Shown here in pieces: positions 21,414 to 39,863 of a stretch of 64,000 nucleotides of DNA; the first letter of the stretch is position 1, and each line of letters opens with the position of its first letter. The notes under the pieces are model-generated. The model had not been told where the DNA came from. It made no database searches and saw only the letters and a program-made list of their open reading frames with translations. This DNA is from Candidatus Saccharimonadales bacterium (lineage in GTDB: Bacteria > Patescibacteriota > Microgenomatia > Woykebacterales > RBG-16-39-9b), in assembly GCA_035480955.1 (NCBI GenBank), contig DATIHF010000006.1, positions 11,110 through 75,109 of the forward strand, given 5' to 3'. A program made the translations under genes and the position numbers.

Positions 21414-22772
21414 TTATTCCACATTCGCACAAGCGATTTTTATTGCTTCAGAAAAAGTGGGGTAGGCGTGGATCATTTCCGCCACGTCACTAGCATTGGC
21501 TTTTAGCTTTATTGCTAAAGTAAGTTCATGAATCATTTCTCCGGCTGATGGTGCGACTATCGAAGCGCCGATCAAAATTCCTTTTTCATCAGTGACGACT
21601 TTAACAAACCCATCAAATTCTTCAGAGGTATTGGCTCGTCCAAGGATGGAAATGGGAACGATGGCTTTTTTGATTTTTATTTTTTTCTCCAGCGCCTCTT
21701 TCTCAGTCAGACCAACTGCTGCAATCTCCGGGGAAGTGAAAACACAGCGCGGAACCGCCGAATAGTCCAGTTTAATTTTTTTACTGTTGAAAATATTGTT
21801 GGCCGCGATGTAGCTTTGATAATTGCCGGTGTGAGTAAATTGGTAAGGACCGACGATGTCTCCGGCAGCGTAAATATTTGGAGTGGTGGTTAGGAGAAAT
21901 TCGTTCACCTTTATTTGTTTGGGGTTGTATTCGACTCCTGCTTTTTCCAGTTCAATGTCGAGCACTGGTTTTTTTCCTGAAGCAAGCAAAATCTCGTCGA
22001 CCTCGACTTTGTCCAGGTGCCCACCAATTTCGAAAGAAACGATCTTTTTGTGACCAGCTTTGCGCACTTCCATGACTTTTGTTCCAGTGAGTACTTTGAC
22101 CCCAGCTCGTTCGAATAAATCCGCAGAGAGTTCACCGACTTCTTTGTCCTCCCGTGCCATCAAAGAGGGGAGTGCTTCGGCTAGATAAACTTCGGAACCA
22201 AAGGTAGAGAAAATCTGGGTAAATTCGAGCCCAACCGCGCCGCCACCAAGGATAAAAATCGATTTGGGCAGATGGTCAAAATCCACTGCTTCTTTGAAAG
22301 TAGAGAACCCAGTTTCTTTTAGTCCCGGGATCGGTGGAACCAAAACTTCTGTTCCAGTCGCAATCAAAAAATTCTTTGCCGAGTAAGTTTTTCCGCCTGC
22401 TTCGACTTCATGCGGGGAAAGAAACCAAGCGCGCTCTTTGATCAAAGTAATCCCTGCGTTTTTGAAAGCTTCTTCGCCTTCGGCAGCTCCAGTCCGGGAA
22501 ACCACCAGGTTTTTCCAGGCTTTGATTTTTTGGTAGTGGATCGTCGTCCCGGTGACACTAACACCAAACTTCCCGGCAAATTTAATATGCTCTAGAGTAT
22601 CTGCGACACTAAGTAAGGCTTTGGTCGGCACACAGGCCCAGTTGGGACACTCGCCACCAACTTTCTCTTTTTCAAAAACTGCGACTTTTTTGCCCAAATT
22701 CGCAGCAAAGTCAGCTCCAACTGAGCCGCCAGCCCCAGAACCTATTACAATTAAATCAAAATCGTATTTCAT
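21414..22772 (-). CDS. class I pyridine-nucleotide-disulfide oxidoreductase (Lpd/GR/MerA-like flavoprotein) with atypical CPNWAC redox centre
   Basis: GSGAGG FAD motif, GGECPNWACVPTK redox-active disulfide, second Rossmann GGGAVGLE and C-terminal HAYPTFSE dimerisation motif. Confidence 0.85.
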   Translation of the reverse strand: MKYDFDLIVIGSGAGGSVGADFAANLGKKVAVFEKEKVGGECPNWACVPTKALLSVADTLEHIKFAGKFGVSVTGTTIHYQKIKAWKNLVVSRTGAAEGEEAFKNAGITLIKERAWFLSPHEVEAGGKTYSAKNFLIATGTEVLVPPIPGLKETGFSTFKEAVDFDHLPKSIFILGGGAVGLEFTQIFSTFGSEVYLAEALPSLMAREDKEVGELSADLFERAGVKVLTGTKVMEVRKAGHKKIVSFEIGGHLDKVEVDEILLASGKKPVLDIELEKAGVEYNPKQIKVNEFLLTTTPNIYAAGDIVGPYQFTHTGNYQSYIAANNIFNSKKIKLDYSAVPRCVFTSPEIAAVGLTEKEALEKKIKIKKAIVPISILGRANTSEEFDGFVKVVTDEKGILIGASIVAPSAGEMIHELTLAIKLKANASDVAEMIHAYPTFSEAIKIACANVE

Positions 22773-23479
22773 CCGAAATTAATTGTCCCGTTGGCGAGTA
22801 AAATTAAGATCCAACCCAGCGCAACTAAGAGCAATCCAATAAAAAGTCTCATGTAACCACGGGACTCTTGGCGCCATTTTGAGAGTGAACCCAAACTGGT
22901 ACCAAAAACAGCCAGGAACAAAATAATGATCAAAGGCGCGACAAAGACGAGATTGTAGAGGACTAGTAAACCTAGCGCGGCCGCGTCAAAATTGAGCGAG
23001 AGGATTGTCAGAATCGCCAGGTAAGGAGCCCCGGTACAAGGAAGCTCGACTGCCGCAACGAAAATTCCCAAAAGAATCACTCCAATCACAGTGGTATTTT
23101 TCGCGAAACCCTCGATTTTTTGAGATAAACTCACCGGAATCCCCAGAGAAAAGCCTCTCTGGTACCAGAAGAAATCTTTTATCTCAACTAGTCCTGCCAG
23201 AACAATCAAAATGCCAACTAGAATTGAAAGATACTCAGTCACAAAAAGAGGAATCGCTCCGAGAAAGTAAACCAAACCAAGTCCGGCAACCAGGTAGGTC
23301 GCGAAAACCGCAAAGATGTAAAGTCCGCCGAGCAAAAGCATTCGAGAGACGCTACGACCTGAGCTCATCAGCATGGAAATTAATAGAATTAAAACCCCAA
23401 TGGCGCAGGGGTTGACCCCATCGATTGCGGCGGACGAGAGTACCAGAGCTAGAGTAGGCAAGTGTGTCTCAATACCCAC
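22769..23479 (-). CDS. ccdA: CcdA/DsbD-family transmembrane thiol-disulfide electron transporter
   Basis: AIDGVNPCAIGVLILL matches the DsbD_2/CcdA pattern, with a second conserved Cys (ELPCTGAPY). 6-TM. 4-nt overlap with the upstream gene. Confidence 0.75.
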   Translation of the reverse strand: MGIETHLPTLALVLSSAAIDGVNPCAIGVLILLISMLMSSGRSVSRMLLLGGLYIFAVFATYLVAGLGLVYFLGAIPLFVTEYLSILVGILIVLAGLVEIKDFFWYQRGFSLGIPVSLSQKIEGFAKNTTVIGVILLGIFVAAVELPCTGAPYLAILTILSLNFDAAALGLLVLYNLVFVAPLIIILFLAVFGTSLGSLSKWRQESRGYMRLFIGLLLVALGWILILLANGTINFG

Positions 23480-24176
23480 GAATAAATTTTCCTTTCAAGA
23501 TGGCAACTTTATAGCTTTCGCAAAGATGATCACTCTTCAATTTAGTTTCCGCAAACTCGATTATCAAACAGTCTCCCGGTGGGACATTACTCTCCGGAGA
23601 GAGGATATAGTTGCCGATGTCAGAAAGTTTGGTCTGAGTGATATTTTTGCCCACTACTTTGTAAACAAATCCTTGAAGTTGTCCCTTCTTTCCATCAGGA
23701 CAGCTTTCCCCATCAACTACGATCAATTTCCCATTGTTAGTCGGAACAGAGAAGTAACCTTGATCAAGTCGACCACCGATCACACTGATGAAAGAGCCGA
23801 AGGAAACCTCGTTTTTGTTTAAAACAACACCTTCGACATGCAAACGGCTATCATTGTGCTCATGCACTAGAGGCGTTCCAATTTTGTTGGAAAAGCCTTT
23901 TGGATCCACCAGATTAACCTTTTGTCCACAGAGCCAAATTTCAAAATCCATGTGCCAGTGGACTGGGCCACTCGTTGCGGAAACGCTGTTGAGATAAACA
24001 GTTGAGAAAGCCAAGAAAAAGGTGGTGAGAAGAATCGTTGCCACTAAAAGAGCGAAAAAATATTTTTTGAGATTTTCTCGGTTTTTGGTGAGAACAATGG
24101 CAAGTAAGACAACGACAATTACCAGAAAGGTGAAGAAAATTAGCGCAATGGACCAGCTTTCGATCTGGGCAGACAT
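23469..24176 (-). CDS. membrane-anchored extracytoplasmic protein with conserved His/Cys (HWHMD, HEHND, 4 Cys), unknown function
   Basis: Two N-terminal TM segments. Overlaps ccdA by 11 nt, so the three genes form one operon. Confidence 0.5.
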   Translation of the reverse strand: MSAQIESWSIALIFFTFLVIVVVLLAIVLTKNRENLKKYFFALLVATILLTTFFLAFSTVYLNSVSATSGPVHWHMDFEIWLCGQKVNLVDPKGFSNKIGTPLVHEHNDSRLHVEGVVLNKNEVSFGSFISVIGGRLDQGYFSVPTNNGKLIVVDGESCPDGKKGQLQGFVYKVVGKNITQTKLSDIGNYILSPESNVPPGDCLIIEFAETKLKSDHLCESYKVAILKGKFIRGY

Positions 24177-24236
24177 TGCCTTAACTATAACAAAATAGGC
24201 ATCTAGAGGCTAGGCTAACCCTCTTATCATATAGTC

Positions 24237-24265
24237 TTGACTCAACGGTTGCTTGCTAGTATCCT
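24237..24265 (+). promoter_or_regulatory. candidate promoter of GC-rich untranslated transcript
   Basis: TTGACT, 17 nt, TATCCT. Confidence 0.3.
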
Positions 24266-24271
24266 TTTTCC

Positions 24272-24690
24272 TAAGGAGAGCGGTTGGGAGAATAGCGGGA
24301 TCCTGGCAGTTGCCATGCTTGGTCGAATGCCATCGTGGCCTACATGGACCGTTCTCCTTTTTCAGGTTGTCAATCGGGGGTAGGAGACCGAGCGACGAAT
24401 AATTTCCTCCTGCATGCCGAGGGAAGGATGATGACATATGGATGTGTCACACTAGCCTGCAAAGGCATCCAAGGTAGCCCAAGGGGAATAGCGAGCATTG
24501 AGTCTTGCTCGCGACGTGGTGTAGCCTCGGCAAAGTTCTCCGGCTGAGACGCACCAGGACCAAATGCCCTGAGGTCCTCGGGTGAAAGCTCGATCAAATA
24601 AACTCTGCGGTAGAAGTACTAATCGTTCACGTTCGTGCCAAGGCAGACCCCGTCTGACTCCTACCAGTCAGGGTCTGCCTCTTTTATTTG
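24272..24690 (+). ncRNA. candidate structured RNA of about 420 nt, class unassigned (GC-rich hairpin-rich island ending in a strong intrinsic terminator)
   Basis: Local GC clearly above surroundings. Only short mutually overlapping ORFs. Helices seen by eye: GGAGAGCGGU/ACCGUUCUCC closing 24276-24360, GGCA-GU-UGCC, and CCAUG/CAUGG. 3' hairpin GGCAGACCC...GGGUCUGCC plus U-tract at 24642-24689. Confidence 0.35.
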
Positions 24691-24722
24691 CAAAAGATCT
24701 CAATCTAGCTTAAAGTTTTACT

Positions 24723-24908
24723 ATGGACGAAACACACAATCTTCACCAAGCCGAAGGGGTCAAACACTTTTGCAAAAATTGCGGCAAAGAAGTCAAAGAG
24801 GGGACCCACTTCACCAAAGAGAACGAGAAATATTGCTGCGAGACTTGCTGCTCCCTTGGTCCACGCGAAGAGCTCCTCAAATCCGCCAACGTCTGCCAAT
24901 TCTGTTGA
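24723..24908 (+). CDS. small Cys-rich metal-binding protein (TRASH/zinc-ribbon-like)
   Basis: FCKNCGKEV...YCCETCC...CQFC, eight Cys in 61 aa. Confidence 0.5.
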   Translation: MDETHNLHQAEGVKHFCKNCGKEVKEGTHFTKENEKYCCETCCSLGPREELLKSANVCQFC

Positions 24909-25037
24909 CAAGCAAGCTTACTTTTGCTAAATTAAAGCTAATGAAAACTAGAGTTTCATTCTTTAACTACTTTAAGTCCGCCGCAACCGGCGAGCTTGTC
25001 GTGGTCTAAAGAGAAACTTTAGTTCCAGTTGGCAAAG

Positions 25038-25060
25038 ACTCGCTCAAGGGCGAGTTTTTT
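25038..25060 (+). terminator. intrinsic terminator
   Basis: GACUCGC-UCAAGG-GCGAGU followed by UUUUUU. Confidence 0.6.
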
Positions 25061-25103
25061 AGTGCGTTAGGAGAGCACTGTGGGAGAGAGCTTCGGTCAT
25101 CAC

Positions 25104-25686: not shown

Positions 25687-26094
25687 GTGTCTGCAGTAGC
25701 ACACACCAGCCTAAGCACCCGTCCTACACGTCACGAGATCACCACCCCAGAACACCGAAGAACACTCAAATCAATGCGACACAAAGACCACTGCAGGAGG
25801 GACAGAGCTCCACTGCTGCGGCGGTATCGTGACCACACTCTACTCATCTGCCGACGCTGCCGCGTCCGAACCGTCCAGATGAGTGCGGATGAGATTGCGG
25901 CCTCGAAGCTGATCATGCATCGACGCCCAGGGTGTTCCCAACTCTTTCCACCGAAGATCGGGTACGTCTACGGCGCCGGAAGATGCTTCATTTGCCAGGA
26001 ATGCCGACGAGCAGCACCTATCCCACCATTGAGTGAGTTGATAGTTGCAGAAGAGAGAGCATCAACAAAGAGAATTCCCCAACGGGCAGCCTAA
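25687..26094 (+). CDS. GC-rich Arg/Cys-rich hypothetical protein (possible zinc-binding), compositionally foreign
   Basis: GTG start. Roughly 55-58 % GC by eye. CRRCRV...GCSQ...CFICQEC. Terminator 26084-26109 overlaps the stop. Confidence 0.35.
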   Translation: MSAVAHTSLSTRPTRHEITTPEHRRTLKSMRHKDHCRRDRAPLLRRYRDHTLLICRRCRVRTVQMSADEIAASKLIMHRRPGCSQLFPPKIGYVYGAGRCFICQECRRAAPIPPLSELIVAEERASTKRIPQRAA

Positions 26095-26109
26095 CCAACT
26101 GCCCTTTTT
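26084..26109 (+). terminator. intrinsic terminator
   Basis: GGGCAG...CUGCCC followed by UUUUU. Confidence 0.6.
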
Positions 26110-26148
26110 CTTGCCTAAAAACTCTGCTTGGGTTATTATCTGCAAGTC

Positions 26149-27312: not shown

Positions 27313-29182
27313 GGATCACGATAACATCTATCACTTCCTGCAGTATTGCGCCTTTCACTGGAGAAATAAAGCCAAAAGCGGCGAAACCCATCGCGATGAA
27401 AGAGGCACCCATCCCAAACCAAATCCCGCCTTTGGCAATACTCAAAACTTTTTTACCAATTCTCAAAAGATGGTTGAGTTTGGCTAGATTATTTTCAACA
27501 AAGACAATATCAGCTGATTCACTGGAAATACTGCTACCACCTTCTCCCAAGGCGATTCCGACGGTTGCGGAGGCCAGGGCAGGAGCGTCATTGAAACCAT
27601 CACCCACCATAACTACGTCTTGGAATTTCTTCTTCAGCTCGAGGATAAAGGCGACTTTCTCGTCCGGCAGACTTTGAGCTTTGACCAGGTCGATCCCGGT
27701 CTGCGCGGCGACCTGCTCTGCAACAGTCGGAGAGTCTCCGGTAAGCATCGCCACTTGTTCGATCCCCAAAGTCTTCAACTCGGCAATTGTTTCTTTGATT
27801 TCCGGGCGGATCTGGTCTGCGAAGACGAGGCTGCCAACTATTTTTTGATCAACTCCGACGAAACTAACCATTTTCCCTTTTGAGCTCTGCTCTTCTTTAA
27901 ATTTGATCTGCTCGGGAGTGAATTTTAAACCCATATTTTTCAGGTGTTTCATACTGCCAACTGAAACGGCGTTCTTTTCAACAAAACCGGCGACTCCTTT
28001 GCCAAAAGTTTCTTTAAAATCTTTCGGGAAAGAAAGTTTGATTTTTTTCTCATTTGCAGCACTTACGATTGATTTGGACAGAATATGGGCCGAGAGTCTT
28101 TCAACTGAGGCAGACAAACGTAAAATTTCTGCTGAGTCAATTTTCTCGAAGGTTTTGACTTCCTCGACCGCGGGCATTCCGAAAGTCAGAGTCCCAGTTT
28201 TATCAAAAACTACTGCTTTGGCGGCACCAATTTTCTCAATCGCAATACCGTTTTTGACAATGATTCCTTTTTTAGCGGCTTTATTGATACCGCCCATGAT
28301 CGCAATCGGAGTGGCCAGAATCAGCGGGCAGGGGGTCGCGACCACCAAAACCGCCAGGACATTGGTCGTATCTTGGGTGAGTAAATAAGTGAAGCCCGCA
28401 ACCAAGAGAGTCACCGGGGTGAAGATCGCTCCGTAACGGTCAGCGAGCCGAACTAAAGGAGCTTTTGATTCCTGCGCTTCACGCACTAAACGAACAATCT
28501 GCTCGTATTTACTGTCTGAAGCTTTGCGGATCGTTTGAATTTTGATTGGGTTATCGAGATTAACACTTCCGGAAAGTAGGGCGGCATTGGACATTTTTTG
28601 GGTCGGGACTGGCTCACCAGTGAGAGCTGCCTCATTGATCGAGGTTTCTCCTTCAACTATTACCGCATCCACTGGTATGAGCTCACCAGGTTTGACCAAA
28701 AGAATGTCACCCACTCGCACTTGCTCAACACTCACATCAGTGACGCTTTCACCTTTGACTAGATGGGCGACCCGCGGAGCCGCGGCGGCTAATTTTTTTA
28801 AAGCATCCGAAGCGCTTCTCAAGGCATAATCTTCCAAGGCTCGGCCGCCAGAGAGCATGATAACCACGATCGCTCCTGCCAGGTATTGACCCAGTAGCAA
28901 CGAAGTAACAATTGCCAAGATCGCAATAACATCGGCACCAAAATTTTTCTTGAGCAACTCTTTCAGAGTGTCATAGGCGAGAGGAATCCCACCCAAAATT
29001 AAAACTAGTTGAAAAAATAAATTGGCAACTTGTTTCTGACCAGAGGCAAGCTCAAACAAACCTATTATTAATAAAACAAAAGAAAAGCTAAAAACTGGGT
29101 ATTTTTTTATCCACTCTGGCGAGCCGGGGAAAAATCGGGAATTTTCTTGCAAACTAGTATTTCCTTTCTTTTTTATTACCAA
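27287..29182 (-). CDS. P1B-type heavy-metal-translocating P-type ATPase (TPCP TM6 motif, no N-terminal metal-binding domain)
   Basis: DKTGTLT phosphorylation site, MVGDGFNDAPAL hinge, TGEPVP and VATPCPLILATP TM6 motif. 631 aa beginning directly with TM helices. Confidence 0.9.
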   Translation of the reverse strand: MVIKKKGNTSLQENSRFFPGSPEWIKKYPVFSFSFVLLIIGLFELASGQKQVANLFFQLVLILGGIPLAYDTLKELLKKNFGADVIAILAIVTSLLLGQYLAGAIVVIMLSGGRALEDYALRSASDALKKLAAAAPRVAHLVKGESVTDVSVEQVRVGDILLVKPGELIPVDAVIVEGETSINEAALTGEPVPTQKMSNAALLSGSVNLDNPIKIQTIRKASDSKYEQIVRLVREAQESKAPLVRLADRYGAIFTPVTLLVAGFTYLLTQDTTNVLAVLVVATPCPLILATPIAIMGGINKAAKKGIIVKNGIAIEKIGAAKAVVFDKTGTLTFGMPAVEEVKTFEKIDSAEILRLSASVERLSAHILSKSIVSAANEKKIKLSFPKDFKETFGKGVAGFVEKNAVSVGSMKHLKNMGLKFTPEQIKFKEEQSSKGKMVSFVGVDQKIVGSLVFADQIRPEIKETIAELKTLGIEQVAMLTGDSPTVAEQVAAQTGIDLVKAQSLPDEKVAFILELKKKFQDVVMVGDGFNDAPALASATVGIALGEGGSSISSESADIVFVENNLAKLNHLLRIGKKVLSIAKGGIWFGMGASFIAMGFAAFGFISPVKGAILQEVIDVIVILNALRVSR

Positions 29183-39455: not shown

Positions 39456-39863
39456 GTGAGAGTGCTGGTTGTCGGTAGCATTGGCAAGAGAGGCGAGACA
39501 CGGATTGATTTCCTGGTAGGAGAATTGGGAGCACGAGACATCGAGGTAGTCAAAGTTAGGACAAACTACGGCAATCGTGATTGGCGAGAACACTTCGATG
39601 AGGTGAAAATATACTTGAAGAATTCACAAAGATATTTTGAAGAGAACTCAATTGATGTCGTGGTCGCGGATCTATCAGCTGCCTCAGATGGTAGAACCCA
39701 CCAGTTGATGATTGCCAATCAACGAGGGATTCCTACTTTTGGTTTTGCCCAAGTGGTAGTGGACACTCCCTGGAGATTAGTCGATGTCGACAGGCTATTC
39801 ACAAATATCAACGATCTTGTCGCTGCATTGCGCTCCTACGAGAAAACTATTGCCGCTGACTGA
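39456..39863 (+). CDS. hypothetical protein (GTG start after AAAGGAG)
   Basis: ORF track starts at 39363. The SD-preceded GTG at 39456 gives VRVLVVGSIGKRGETRIDFLV... Confidence 0.4.
   Translation: MRVLVVGSIGKRGETRIDFLVGELGARDIEVVKVRTNYGNRDWREHFDEVKIYLKNSQRYFEENSIDVVVADLSAASDGRTHQLMIANQRGIPTFGFAQVVVDTPWRLVDVDRLFTNINDLVAALRSYEKTIAAD

Follow-up and report, generated by a model that had tools for sequence, protein, structure and literature searches.

Positions 24272-24689 on the plus strand of a 64,000-nt stretch of contig DATIHF010000006.1 (the window), assigned to a Candidatus Saccharimonadales bacterium, are on balance probably the gene of a stable, independently transcribed and structured non-coding RNA (ncRNA) of about 418 nt, a member of a small undescribed family present in four Saccharimonadales lineages. 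The segment 24237-24689 consists of a sigma-70-like promoter, about 418 nt without a conserved open reading frame (ORF), and an intrinsic terminator. It is flanked on one side by a divergent redox/membrane operon of three genes on the minus strand, with the first gene at 23469-24176, and on the other side by a 61-aa Cys-rich ORF on the plus strand (24723-24908). Public annotation of the same contig leaves 24177-25079 without any gene, and the ORF list of the segment has only short, overlapping ORFs of at most 75 aa on both strands, as was also noted in the preliminary description of this DNA. The G+C content is 0.51-0.54 over 24200-24700 against about 0.39-0.47 in both flanks, so that the GC richness claimed there is real but represents a modest rise and is not dramatic. 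The neighbouring protein has 100% identity to a protein from a Candidatus Saccharimonadales MAG, and the same contig was also found in GCA_964508465.1 and in three Logan assemblies. All four public contig copies (L001-L004) have GCCC where the window has GCC at about 24313-24314; this 1-nt deletion lies in the variable part enclosed by the first helix of the RNA (P1) and is the sole difference across 24200-25080.

A promoter scan returned the TTGACT-17-TATCCT promoter proposed earlier at 24237-24265 (+), with the -35 box TTGACT at 24237-24242, a 17-nt spacer and the -10 box TATCCT at 24260-24265. Its position predicts a transcription start at about 24272. The predicted transcript at 24272-24689 (+) is delimited by this promoter and by the intrinsic terminator at 24642-24689 (+), and it has neither an Rfam match nor a conserved ORF. 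The terminator stem (24642-24679) is formed by the strands GGCAGACC and GGUCUGCC, its loop carries the box CUCCUACC at 24658-24665, and the U tract UCUUUUAUUU follows at 24680-24689, in agreement with the long terminal plus-strand hairpin seen in the first reading. The terminator scan skipped 24642-24689 only because the loop with the inner stem exceeds the 8-nt loop limit of the scan.

The folding z-score of the window segment is -1.68 for the plus strand and -1.18 for the minus strand. Because the folding is not convincingly better than that of shuffled sequences, the single sequence is suggestive, not conclusive, and the case for more than chance comes from the comparison of homologues.

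Homologous loci and conserved structure

Homologues were searched for at the loci of homologues of the flanking 235-aa protein and at the loci of homologues of the Cys-rich protein. Three further copies were recognized at syntenic loci, namely L005 (about 2678-2196 on the minus strand, Logan SRR255284xx; also L006, L008 and L009), L098 (about 557-1036 on the plus strand, JGI 3300065473) and L116 (about 99-612 on the plus strand, ENA ERZ4903072), and the length in the family ranges from 420 to 515 nt. Even the nearest homologues of the flanking 235-aa protein have no more than about 55-58% identity to it. The G+C content of the three elements is 56-59% inside loci of about 35-45%. Promoters of the form TTGACA or TTGACT, a 17-nt spacer, and TAATAT, TAACAT or TAAAAT are at the same place in the three loci, and all four copies end in an intrinsic terminator. 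Conserved blocks are collinear among the copies despite low overall sequence similarity. G-U pairs in the helices, such as three in one stem of L116 (hairpin KH, below), are compatible with the plus strand only.

In all four lineages, the element is upstream of the Cys-rich gene and co-oriented with it. This gene is directly next to the RNA in the window and in L116, while in L005 and L098 the two are separated by a single gene for a small, non-homologous membrane protein. As to the co-occurrence of RNA and Cys-rich gene raised in the preliminary description, every RNA found is upstream of a Cys-rich gene, and among about 10 related loci of this gene the RNA was found at 4. One of the loci without it is L115, which has neither the RNA nor the second small membrane-protein gene and in which neither of the covariance models described below (R1 and R2) finds anything. 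Positions 1-435 of L115 run from the upstream protein through one small membrane protein to a terminator, and the Cys-rich gene follows directly. L115 is a close relative of L005, its Cys-rich protein being about 80% identical (by eye) to that of L005, and the absence of the RNA and of the second small membrane-protein gene is a presence/absence polymorphism.

The tiny Cys-rich gene, placed just after the terminator in the preliminary description, begins 33 nt beyond the U tract. It is conserved, with 55% identity and, over at least eight lineages, 43-65%. The public annotation missed it in the segment 24688-24908 (+). Its product has the motif CxxC...CCxxCC...CxxC and only a weak zinc-ribbon match in Pfam, and the designation TRASH-like used here for this putative metal-binding type is given by motif, not by database match. 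A promoter TTGACA/TTGCAA-17/18-TA(A/G)AGT precedes the gene in seven lineages, four of them without the RNA. Because this promoter ends 6-10 nt before the ATG and there is no Shine-Dalgarno sequence, the gene is predicted to be leaderless or almost leaderless, so that it would have no use for a transcript reading through from the RNA.

A search by nhmmer with the window sequence alone did not recover L005. When a profile hidden Markov model of the 3' domain was built from L116, L005 and L098, the window was its best non-training match (24554-24689, E=0.026). Covariance model R1, made from the same three copies without the window, matched the window at 24546-24691 with E=3.8e-4 (both strands of 1.31 Mb were searched), and the next match had E=0.35. 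Covariance model R2, made from the 5' domains of L098 and L116, placed L005 correctly as its best non-training match (E=0.18).

The family is defined by a promoter, the helix P1 at the 5' end, a box G/A-GUAGGAG in a hairpin loop and, 280-395 nt later, a box C/U-UCCUACC in the terminator loop; all four copies have this combination. A regular expression for the two boxes 150-600 nt apart followed by a U-rich tail, run over 1.54 Mb, found only three other, unconfirmed places: L016, one sequence shared by L059 and L069, and position 39515 of the window, all with looser forms of the two boxes. Of these, L016, L059 and L069 are without a match to R1.

In the window, P1 pairs AAGGAGAGCGGU (24273-24284) with ACCGUUCUCCUU (24348-24359) in the minimum-free-energy (MFE) fold, so that the first helix noticed earlier, GGAGAGCGGU/ACCGUUCUCC, is present and extends to 12 bp. 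Across the family, P1 has 11-12 bp and begins 1-5 nt from the predicted start. Its sequence in the window is wholly unlike that of the other three copies, among which compensatory differences are found. Compared with shuffles, the P1 duplexes of the four RNAs gave p = 0.002, 0.054, 0.003 and 0.105, and that of the window beats 998 of 1000. Of two other helices proposed in the preliminary description, the hairpin GGCA-GU-UGCC cannot form with a 2-nt loop, and the fold pairs GGCA with UGCC further downstream; CCAUG and CAUGG are complementary as claimed, but their helix is absent from the MFE fold.

A hairpin designated KH follows at 24369-24396 (+), with the stem GUC..UCGG/CCGA..GAC and the 10-nt loop GGGUAGGAGA. 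The conserved box GGUAGGAG at 24379-24386 is in this loop, and all four homologues have it in a hairpin loop. The stem sequences of KH differ between lineages. In the terminator hairpin the outer stem is conserved, the inner stem is different in each lineage, and the loop always carries (C/U)UCCUACC. The placement of the boxes was tested by forcing each box to be unpaired and comparing the enclosing hairpin with shuffled flanks. Both boxes were in hairpin loops in 8 of 8 cases in the four RNAs; the KH stem gave p = 0.049, 0.003, 0.011 and 0.007, and shuffled flanks were as stable as the terminator hairpin in 0, 4, 0 and 0 per 1000.

The KH loop box (in a loop of 9-10 nt across the family; AGUAGGAG in L116) is perfectly complementary to the terminator loop box in the window. 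The predicted loop-loop duplex of 7-8 bp has -15.1 kcal/mol in the window, -14.1 in L005, -12.7 in L098 and -12.2 in L116. One G-C pair became G-U in L098. In L116, a pair is lost at one end (G to A) and an A-U pair is gained at the other, with 8 bp retained. This conserved complementarity of two hairpin loops suggests a contact between KH and the terminator and looks like a tertiary (or quaternary) one.

Full-length MAFFT alignments with RNAalifold gave unreliable output at this divergence, and domain-wise models and a hand-anchored core were used for that reason. In the alignment of the 3' domain made by R1, which was not hand-fitted, 86.1% of cells are paired against 77.8% when shuffled, a value reached by none of 500 shuffles. 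Five pairs change on both sides (1 of 500 shuffles), and pairing falls to 26-53% when the partners are slid by 1-3 columns. The core alignment, hand-anchored with AT spacers (MAFFT register), has 52 position-equivalent pairs and is 97.6% paired, with 35 of these pairs changed on both sides; these figures are descriptive, as the helices were picked per sequence.

The most conserved block is the 'island' hairpin AGGAC-CAAAUGCCCUGAG-GUCCU at 24556-24578 (+), inside the covariance-model match. The pattern CCAGGACCAAnnGCnCUG..GUCCU is common to the window, L005 and L116, which share the hairpin AGGAC-[CAAnnGCnCUGnn]-GUCCU, while L098 has a different hairpin at that position. It is followed by the post-island hairpin CGGG-UGAAAG-CUCG at 24579-24592 (+). 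This hairpin has 4-5 bp across the family; in the model-derived alignment, two of four pairs change on both sides, and the innermost one is CG, UA and UG in three sequences. The conserved single-stranded stretch CAAAUAAACUCUG at 24595-24607 (+), aligned with CAAAUAACUCUG in L116 and CAAAAAAGCUG in L005, has the consensus CAAAUAA(A)CUCUG. Upstream of the island, the helix P-pre pairs GGUGU (24518-24522) with GCACC (24551-24555) in the MFE fold and encloses a hairpin at 24526-24548; its hand-curated equivalents are GGUGG/CCACC in L005 and L116 and GAGCA/UGCUC in L098. Two hairpins were assigned to the middle domain. GACAUAU-GG-AUGUGUC at 24433-24448 (+) is in both the MFE and centroid folds, and its conservation is not demonstrated. 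GCGAGCA...UGCUCGC at 24491-24512, part of an element that extends to 24517 (+), is in the MFE fold and is overlapped by the conserved motif CGCGACGU at 24510-24517. By direct reading of the sequences, the ACGACGU motif is also present in L005 and L098, and several hairpins are capped by GNRA or UUCG tetraloops.

All four RNAs thus keep the elements in one order, from P1 and KH through a variable, GC-rich middle of several hairpins to P-pre, the island or another hairpin in its place, the short post-island hairpin, the single-stranded run and the terminator, while the sequences of the helices change. A model of the RNA can be proposed from these elements. The KH and terminator loops would pair over 7-8 bp, tying the 3'-terminal hairpin to the 5' domain. 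P1 would sequester the 5' end and, together with the loop-loop contact, would give a compact, closed and nuclease-resistant fold. The 13-nt island loop, conserved in three of the four lineages, and the single-stranded run may serve as contact surfaces for a protein or RNA partner. The RNA would be trans-acting, probably as a regulator or as a scaffold that binds proteins, tied to its metal/redox neighbourhood, and would not be the leader of the next gene. The only functional hint is its constant position by metal/redox genes, namely those for the TRASH-like Cys-rich protein and small membrane proteins, and the His-rich and P-type-ATPase operons.

Alternative explanations

Several observations weigh against an ncRNA family of this kind. 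Whole-molecule folding z-scores are not clearly better than those of shuffles (window -1.68, L005 +1.20, L098 -1.90, L116 -2.30), and covariation statistics are weak because there are four lineages only. The loop-loop pairing has no compensatory double change, six of its seven pairs being invariant, and the two boxes could each bind something else. The 5' model R2 fails to recover the 5' domain of the window, which is divergent in sequence, so that the window is placed in the family by its 3' domain, its two boxes, synteny and its architecture as a whole. A discrete transcript is predicted from promoter and terminator sequence. L115, a close relative of L005, is without the RNA at the locus, and the RNA is therefore dispensable or mobile. 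Wider searches gave no further members: a metagenome scan with the island pattern had none, a second one with a pattern of the 5' end and KH gave 15 matches, all in unrelated high-GC coding DNA, and two viral scans were without real matches. The island pattern was too strict, as it required CUGA and would miss the CUGG type of L116, and exact-pattern searches of large collections are a blunt tool. No RNA was found by nhmmer, regular expression or covariance model in 80 loci of GTDB representatives reached through the 235-aa neighbour, which are scattered over lineages of the candidate phyla radiation (CPR) and DPANN.

When the whole window was compared by cmscan with the 4227 families of Rfam 15, none matched at gathering thresholds, in agreement with the novelty suggested earlier. 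At E≤10, positions 24100-24800 gave only a 16-nt hairpin match to RsmV (24433-24448) of 9 bits against a cut-off of 100, which is meaningless and is the only match to the CsrB/Rsm-type sponges, RNAs with many GGA motifs in hairpin loops. The elements of L005, L098 and L116 match no Rfam family at E≤1. The models of OLE, ROOL, GOLLD, raiA and HEARO gave no match. A literature search found no publication describing this RNA, and no comparable ncRNA class specific to Saccharibacteria or Patescibacteria is described in Rfam 15 or in the literature searched. The RNA represents a new family, at present placeable in no functional class.

Some candidates were tried and rejected. A protein-coding gene was dismissed after tblastx among the four homologues gave only short matches over the island, in several or all frames at once, which therefore reflect nucleotide and not protein conservation. 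The 70-aa plus-strand ORF has no homologue among 5.8 billion proteins, and the small proteins of L005 are unmatched in the region; the translated search proposed in the preliminary description thus produced no homologous gene. A P-type ATPase pseudogene was rejected, as tblastn of three ATPases matches only the ATPase gene of the window at 27440-28768 and nothing in 24177-25100. A repeat or mobile element was rejected with no second copy in the window and the same genomic position in four lineages.

A cis-regulatory leader (riboswitch or attenuator) would sense a metal or metabolite, and its terminator would gate the next gene, either the Cys-rich metallochaperone-like gene (window, L116) or the small membrane-protein gene (L005, L098). 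The terminator ends only 33 nt before the Cys-rich ORF, the neighbourhood is related to metals and redox, and the next gene in L005 and L098 has a Shine-Dalgarno sequence with a -10-like box only and no clear -35 box. An apparent leader-peptide attenuator one gene away is an example of attenuation within the locus. Nevertheless, this explanation, which was one of two offered by the preliminary description, is rather unlikely. The Cys-rich gene has its own conserved promoter in seven lineages and a leaderless start codon that read-through would bury, and what follows the RNA in L005 and L098 is another gene than in the window and L116; a cis-leader would go with no intervening promoter and with the same class of downstream gene in all homologues. 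No riboswitch class of Rfam (cobalamin, M-box, NiCo, Mn and others) has an aptamer match in the window even at E≤10, and 420-515 nt is far longer than known riboswitches. The conserved complement lies in the loop of the terminator and not in a stem strand, and therefore cannot act as an antiterminator. No conserved antiterminator was seen by inspection, with no systematic search for alternative structures made. The conserved promoter of the Cys-rich gene, the varying downstream gene and the absence of the RNA from L115 together argue for an independent accessory ncRNA gene.

An independent ncRNA could also be a housekeeping one (RNase P, tmRNA, 6S or SRP) diverged beyond the Rfam models, the part of the earlier proposal that found no support, unlike an independent novel RNA. 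About 420 nt is within the size range of RNase P RNA and tmRNA, the element has its own promoter and terminator, and divergent RNAs are a known trait of CPR bacteria, Saccharibacteria among them. A housekeeping RNA is, however, very improbable. The RNase P models RF00010 and RF00011 match neither the window nor the three homologues, ARAGORN found no tRNA or tmRNA in the window (a tmRNA combines a tRNA-like domain, with a T arm and a CCA-proximal acceptor, and a reading frame for a tag peptide), and the P4-pseudoknot box CR-I GAGGAAAGUCC (GGAAAGUCC-type) does not occur with two or fewer mismatches inside 24237-24690, its 20 matches elsewhere in the window being the chance expectation. The Rfam models of 6S and SRP RNA gave no match either; 6S RNA is a single rod with a central bubble and SRP RNA has the domain IV motif, while the window fold is multi-branched with a terminal terminator hairpin. 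These searches bear out the earlier statement that no RNase P P4, tmRNA, SRP or B12 element could be matched by eye. The 5' and 3' ends do not pair together, and a housekeeping RNA would not be patchy, absent from the L115 locus and beside a minority of the Cys-rich genes. The weak folding z-scores, the rare and patchy distribution and a G+C content unlike that of the genome would also suit a functionless, GC-rich remnant of a degraded or foreign gene between promoter-like and terminator-like sequences. This is improbable, as promoter, P1, both loop boxes and terminator were kept in four lineages with neighbour proteins about 55% identical while the helix sequences changed; the tblastn result excludes a remnant of the P-type ATPase that relatives have at the neighbouring position, and there is no protein-level similarity among the homologues or to database proteins. 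The least probable explanation, to which hardly any weight is given, is an mRNA for one or more small proteins. L005, L098 and L116 begin with CAUGC, which puts an AUG where transcription is predicted to start, the clade uses leaderless mRNAs and has many such genes in this locus, and one gene caller gave an 83-aa ORF in L005. Against this, the 5' ORFs would encode unrelated peptides of 8, 18 and 33 aa, the window has no 5' AUG, no frame is conserved in tblastx, and the Arg/His-rich, low-complexity-looking 83-aa product has no match in the window.

Other features of the locus

Directly downstream of the Cys-rich gene, at 24905-25063 (+), is a segment with the form of a leader-peptide transcription attenuator. 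Its promoter TTGACA-17-TAAATT is followed by a near-leaderless ORF of 22 codons (24940-25008, MKTRVSFFNYFKSAATGELVVV*), which is Phe/Tyr-rich and conserved in six lineages, by a hairpin across the stop codon, and by the terminator CUCGCUCAAGGGCGAG with U6. Within the ORF, the segment GGCGAGC is identical to the 3' strand of the terminator and could form an antiterminator. Homologues of this attenuator are at L098:1673-1800, L115:664-790, L116:887-1035, L099:1338-1465 and L011:41-184 (-). Rfam Phe_leader matches weakly, with 31.7 bits in L098 and 20.5 bits in the window against a cut-off of 55, and the genes that follow code for small proteins of the zinc-ribbon type and are not phe genes.

A second GC-rich block (58-60% G+C) at 25687-26094 (+) was considered as a paralogous RNA and rejected, as it is a real gene of a 135-aa Cys-rich protein. 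A ribosome-binding site, GGAG, precedes the GTG start by 7 nt, and a terminator is at about 26084-26110. A search of 1.84 billion representative proteins gave the 135-aa protein three distant homologues only (29-33% identity), with seven conserved Cys, and it has no Pfam or NCBIfam family above threshold.

The minus-strand operon at 21414-24176 encodes a His-rich membrane protein of 235-270 aa, a SfLAP-like membrane protein and a pyridine-nucleotide disulfide oxidoreductase. The operon of relatives (L005, L011, L012 and L015) starts with a P-type cation ATPase of about 900 aa and includes an ATP-cone gene; the operon of the window is without both. The 235-aa family has the invariant motifs GPVHWH and HEHND.R.H and is widespread in CPR bacteria and DPANN archaea.

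Comparison with known RNAs

Large structured RNAs without assigned function are, to our knowledge, rare in bacteria, and each of those solved so far (OLE, ROOL, GOLLD, and the IscB/TnpB guide RNAs) showed unexpected biology. The genomes of Saccharibacteria are tiny and under strong reduction. An ncRNA gene of 420-515 nt retained in lineages with neighbour proteins about 55% identical is unlikely to be idle, because promoter, terminator and architecture were kept in genomes so reduced. With its small and patchy family, it may be a niche accessory RNA.

M-box, NiCo and cobalamin leaders share with the window RNA a structured 5' element and a terminator just upstream of a metal-related gene. The window RNA differs from them in having no aptamer match, an inconstant downstream gene, a Cys-rich gene with its own promoter and predicted leaderless start, and a complementarity directed to the terminator loop. 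In the phi29-type pRNA, two mutually complementary loops allow head-to-tail assembly of a ring; these RNAs are phage-encoded, have about 120-170 nt and a complementarity of 4 nt. As in pRNA, two loops of one RNA are complementary in the window RNA, which is chromosomal, much larger and without phage context.

OLE RNA (ornate, large, extremophilic) of Bacillota is about 610 nt long, has genes of small membrane proteins beside its own and is associated with tolerance to metal ions and to stress. Both OLE and the window RNA are large, GC-rich bacterial ncRNAs with many hairpins and their own transcription unit, and small membrane-protein and metal-related genes flank the window RNA. Unlike OLE, the window RNA is shorter, belongs to another phylum and has no match to the OLE model of Rfam, and no partner genes like oapA, oapB or oapC were identified. 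The architecture of OLE includes a kissing loop (PMC12286853). In ROOL and GOLLD, kissing loops were found by covariation and first read as tertiary contacts, and they proved to be intermolecular bridges that build homo-oligomers (PMC12286853). These two are, like the window RNA, large structured RNAs with function unassigned; the window RNA has 420-515 nt against about 580-800 nt, no Rfam match, and no phage or tRNA association, the viral scans being negative. By analogy with OLE, ROOL and GOLLD, for which such assembly was found recently, its loops might pair between molecules to give head-to-tail dimers, rings or larger RNA-only bodies. Alternatively or in addition, the RNA might join the Cys-rich or small membrane proteins encoded beside it in an OLE-like ribonucleoprotein at the membrane, with a role in the metal homeostasis of these ultra-small episymbiotic bacteria. 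This extended model is doubtful, and multimerisation in particular is pure conjecture. The KH/terminator complementarity could act either way, and it represents a directly testable hypothesis of intramolecular closure or of intermolecular assembly as in ROOL and GOLLD.

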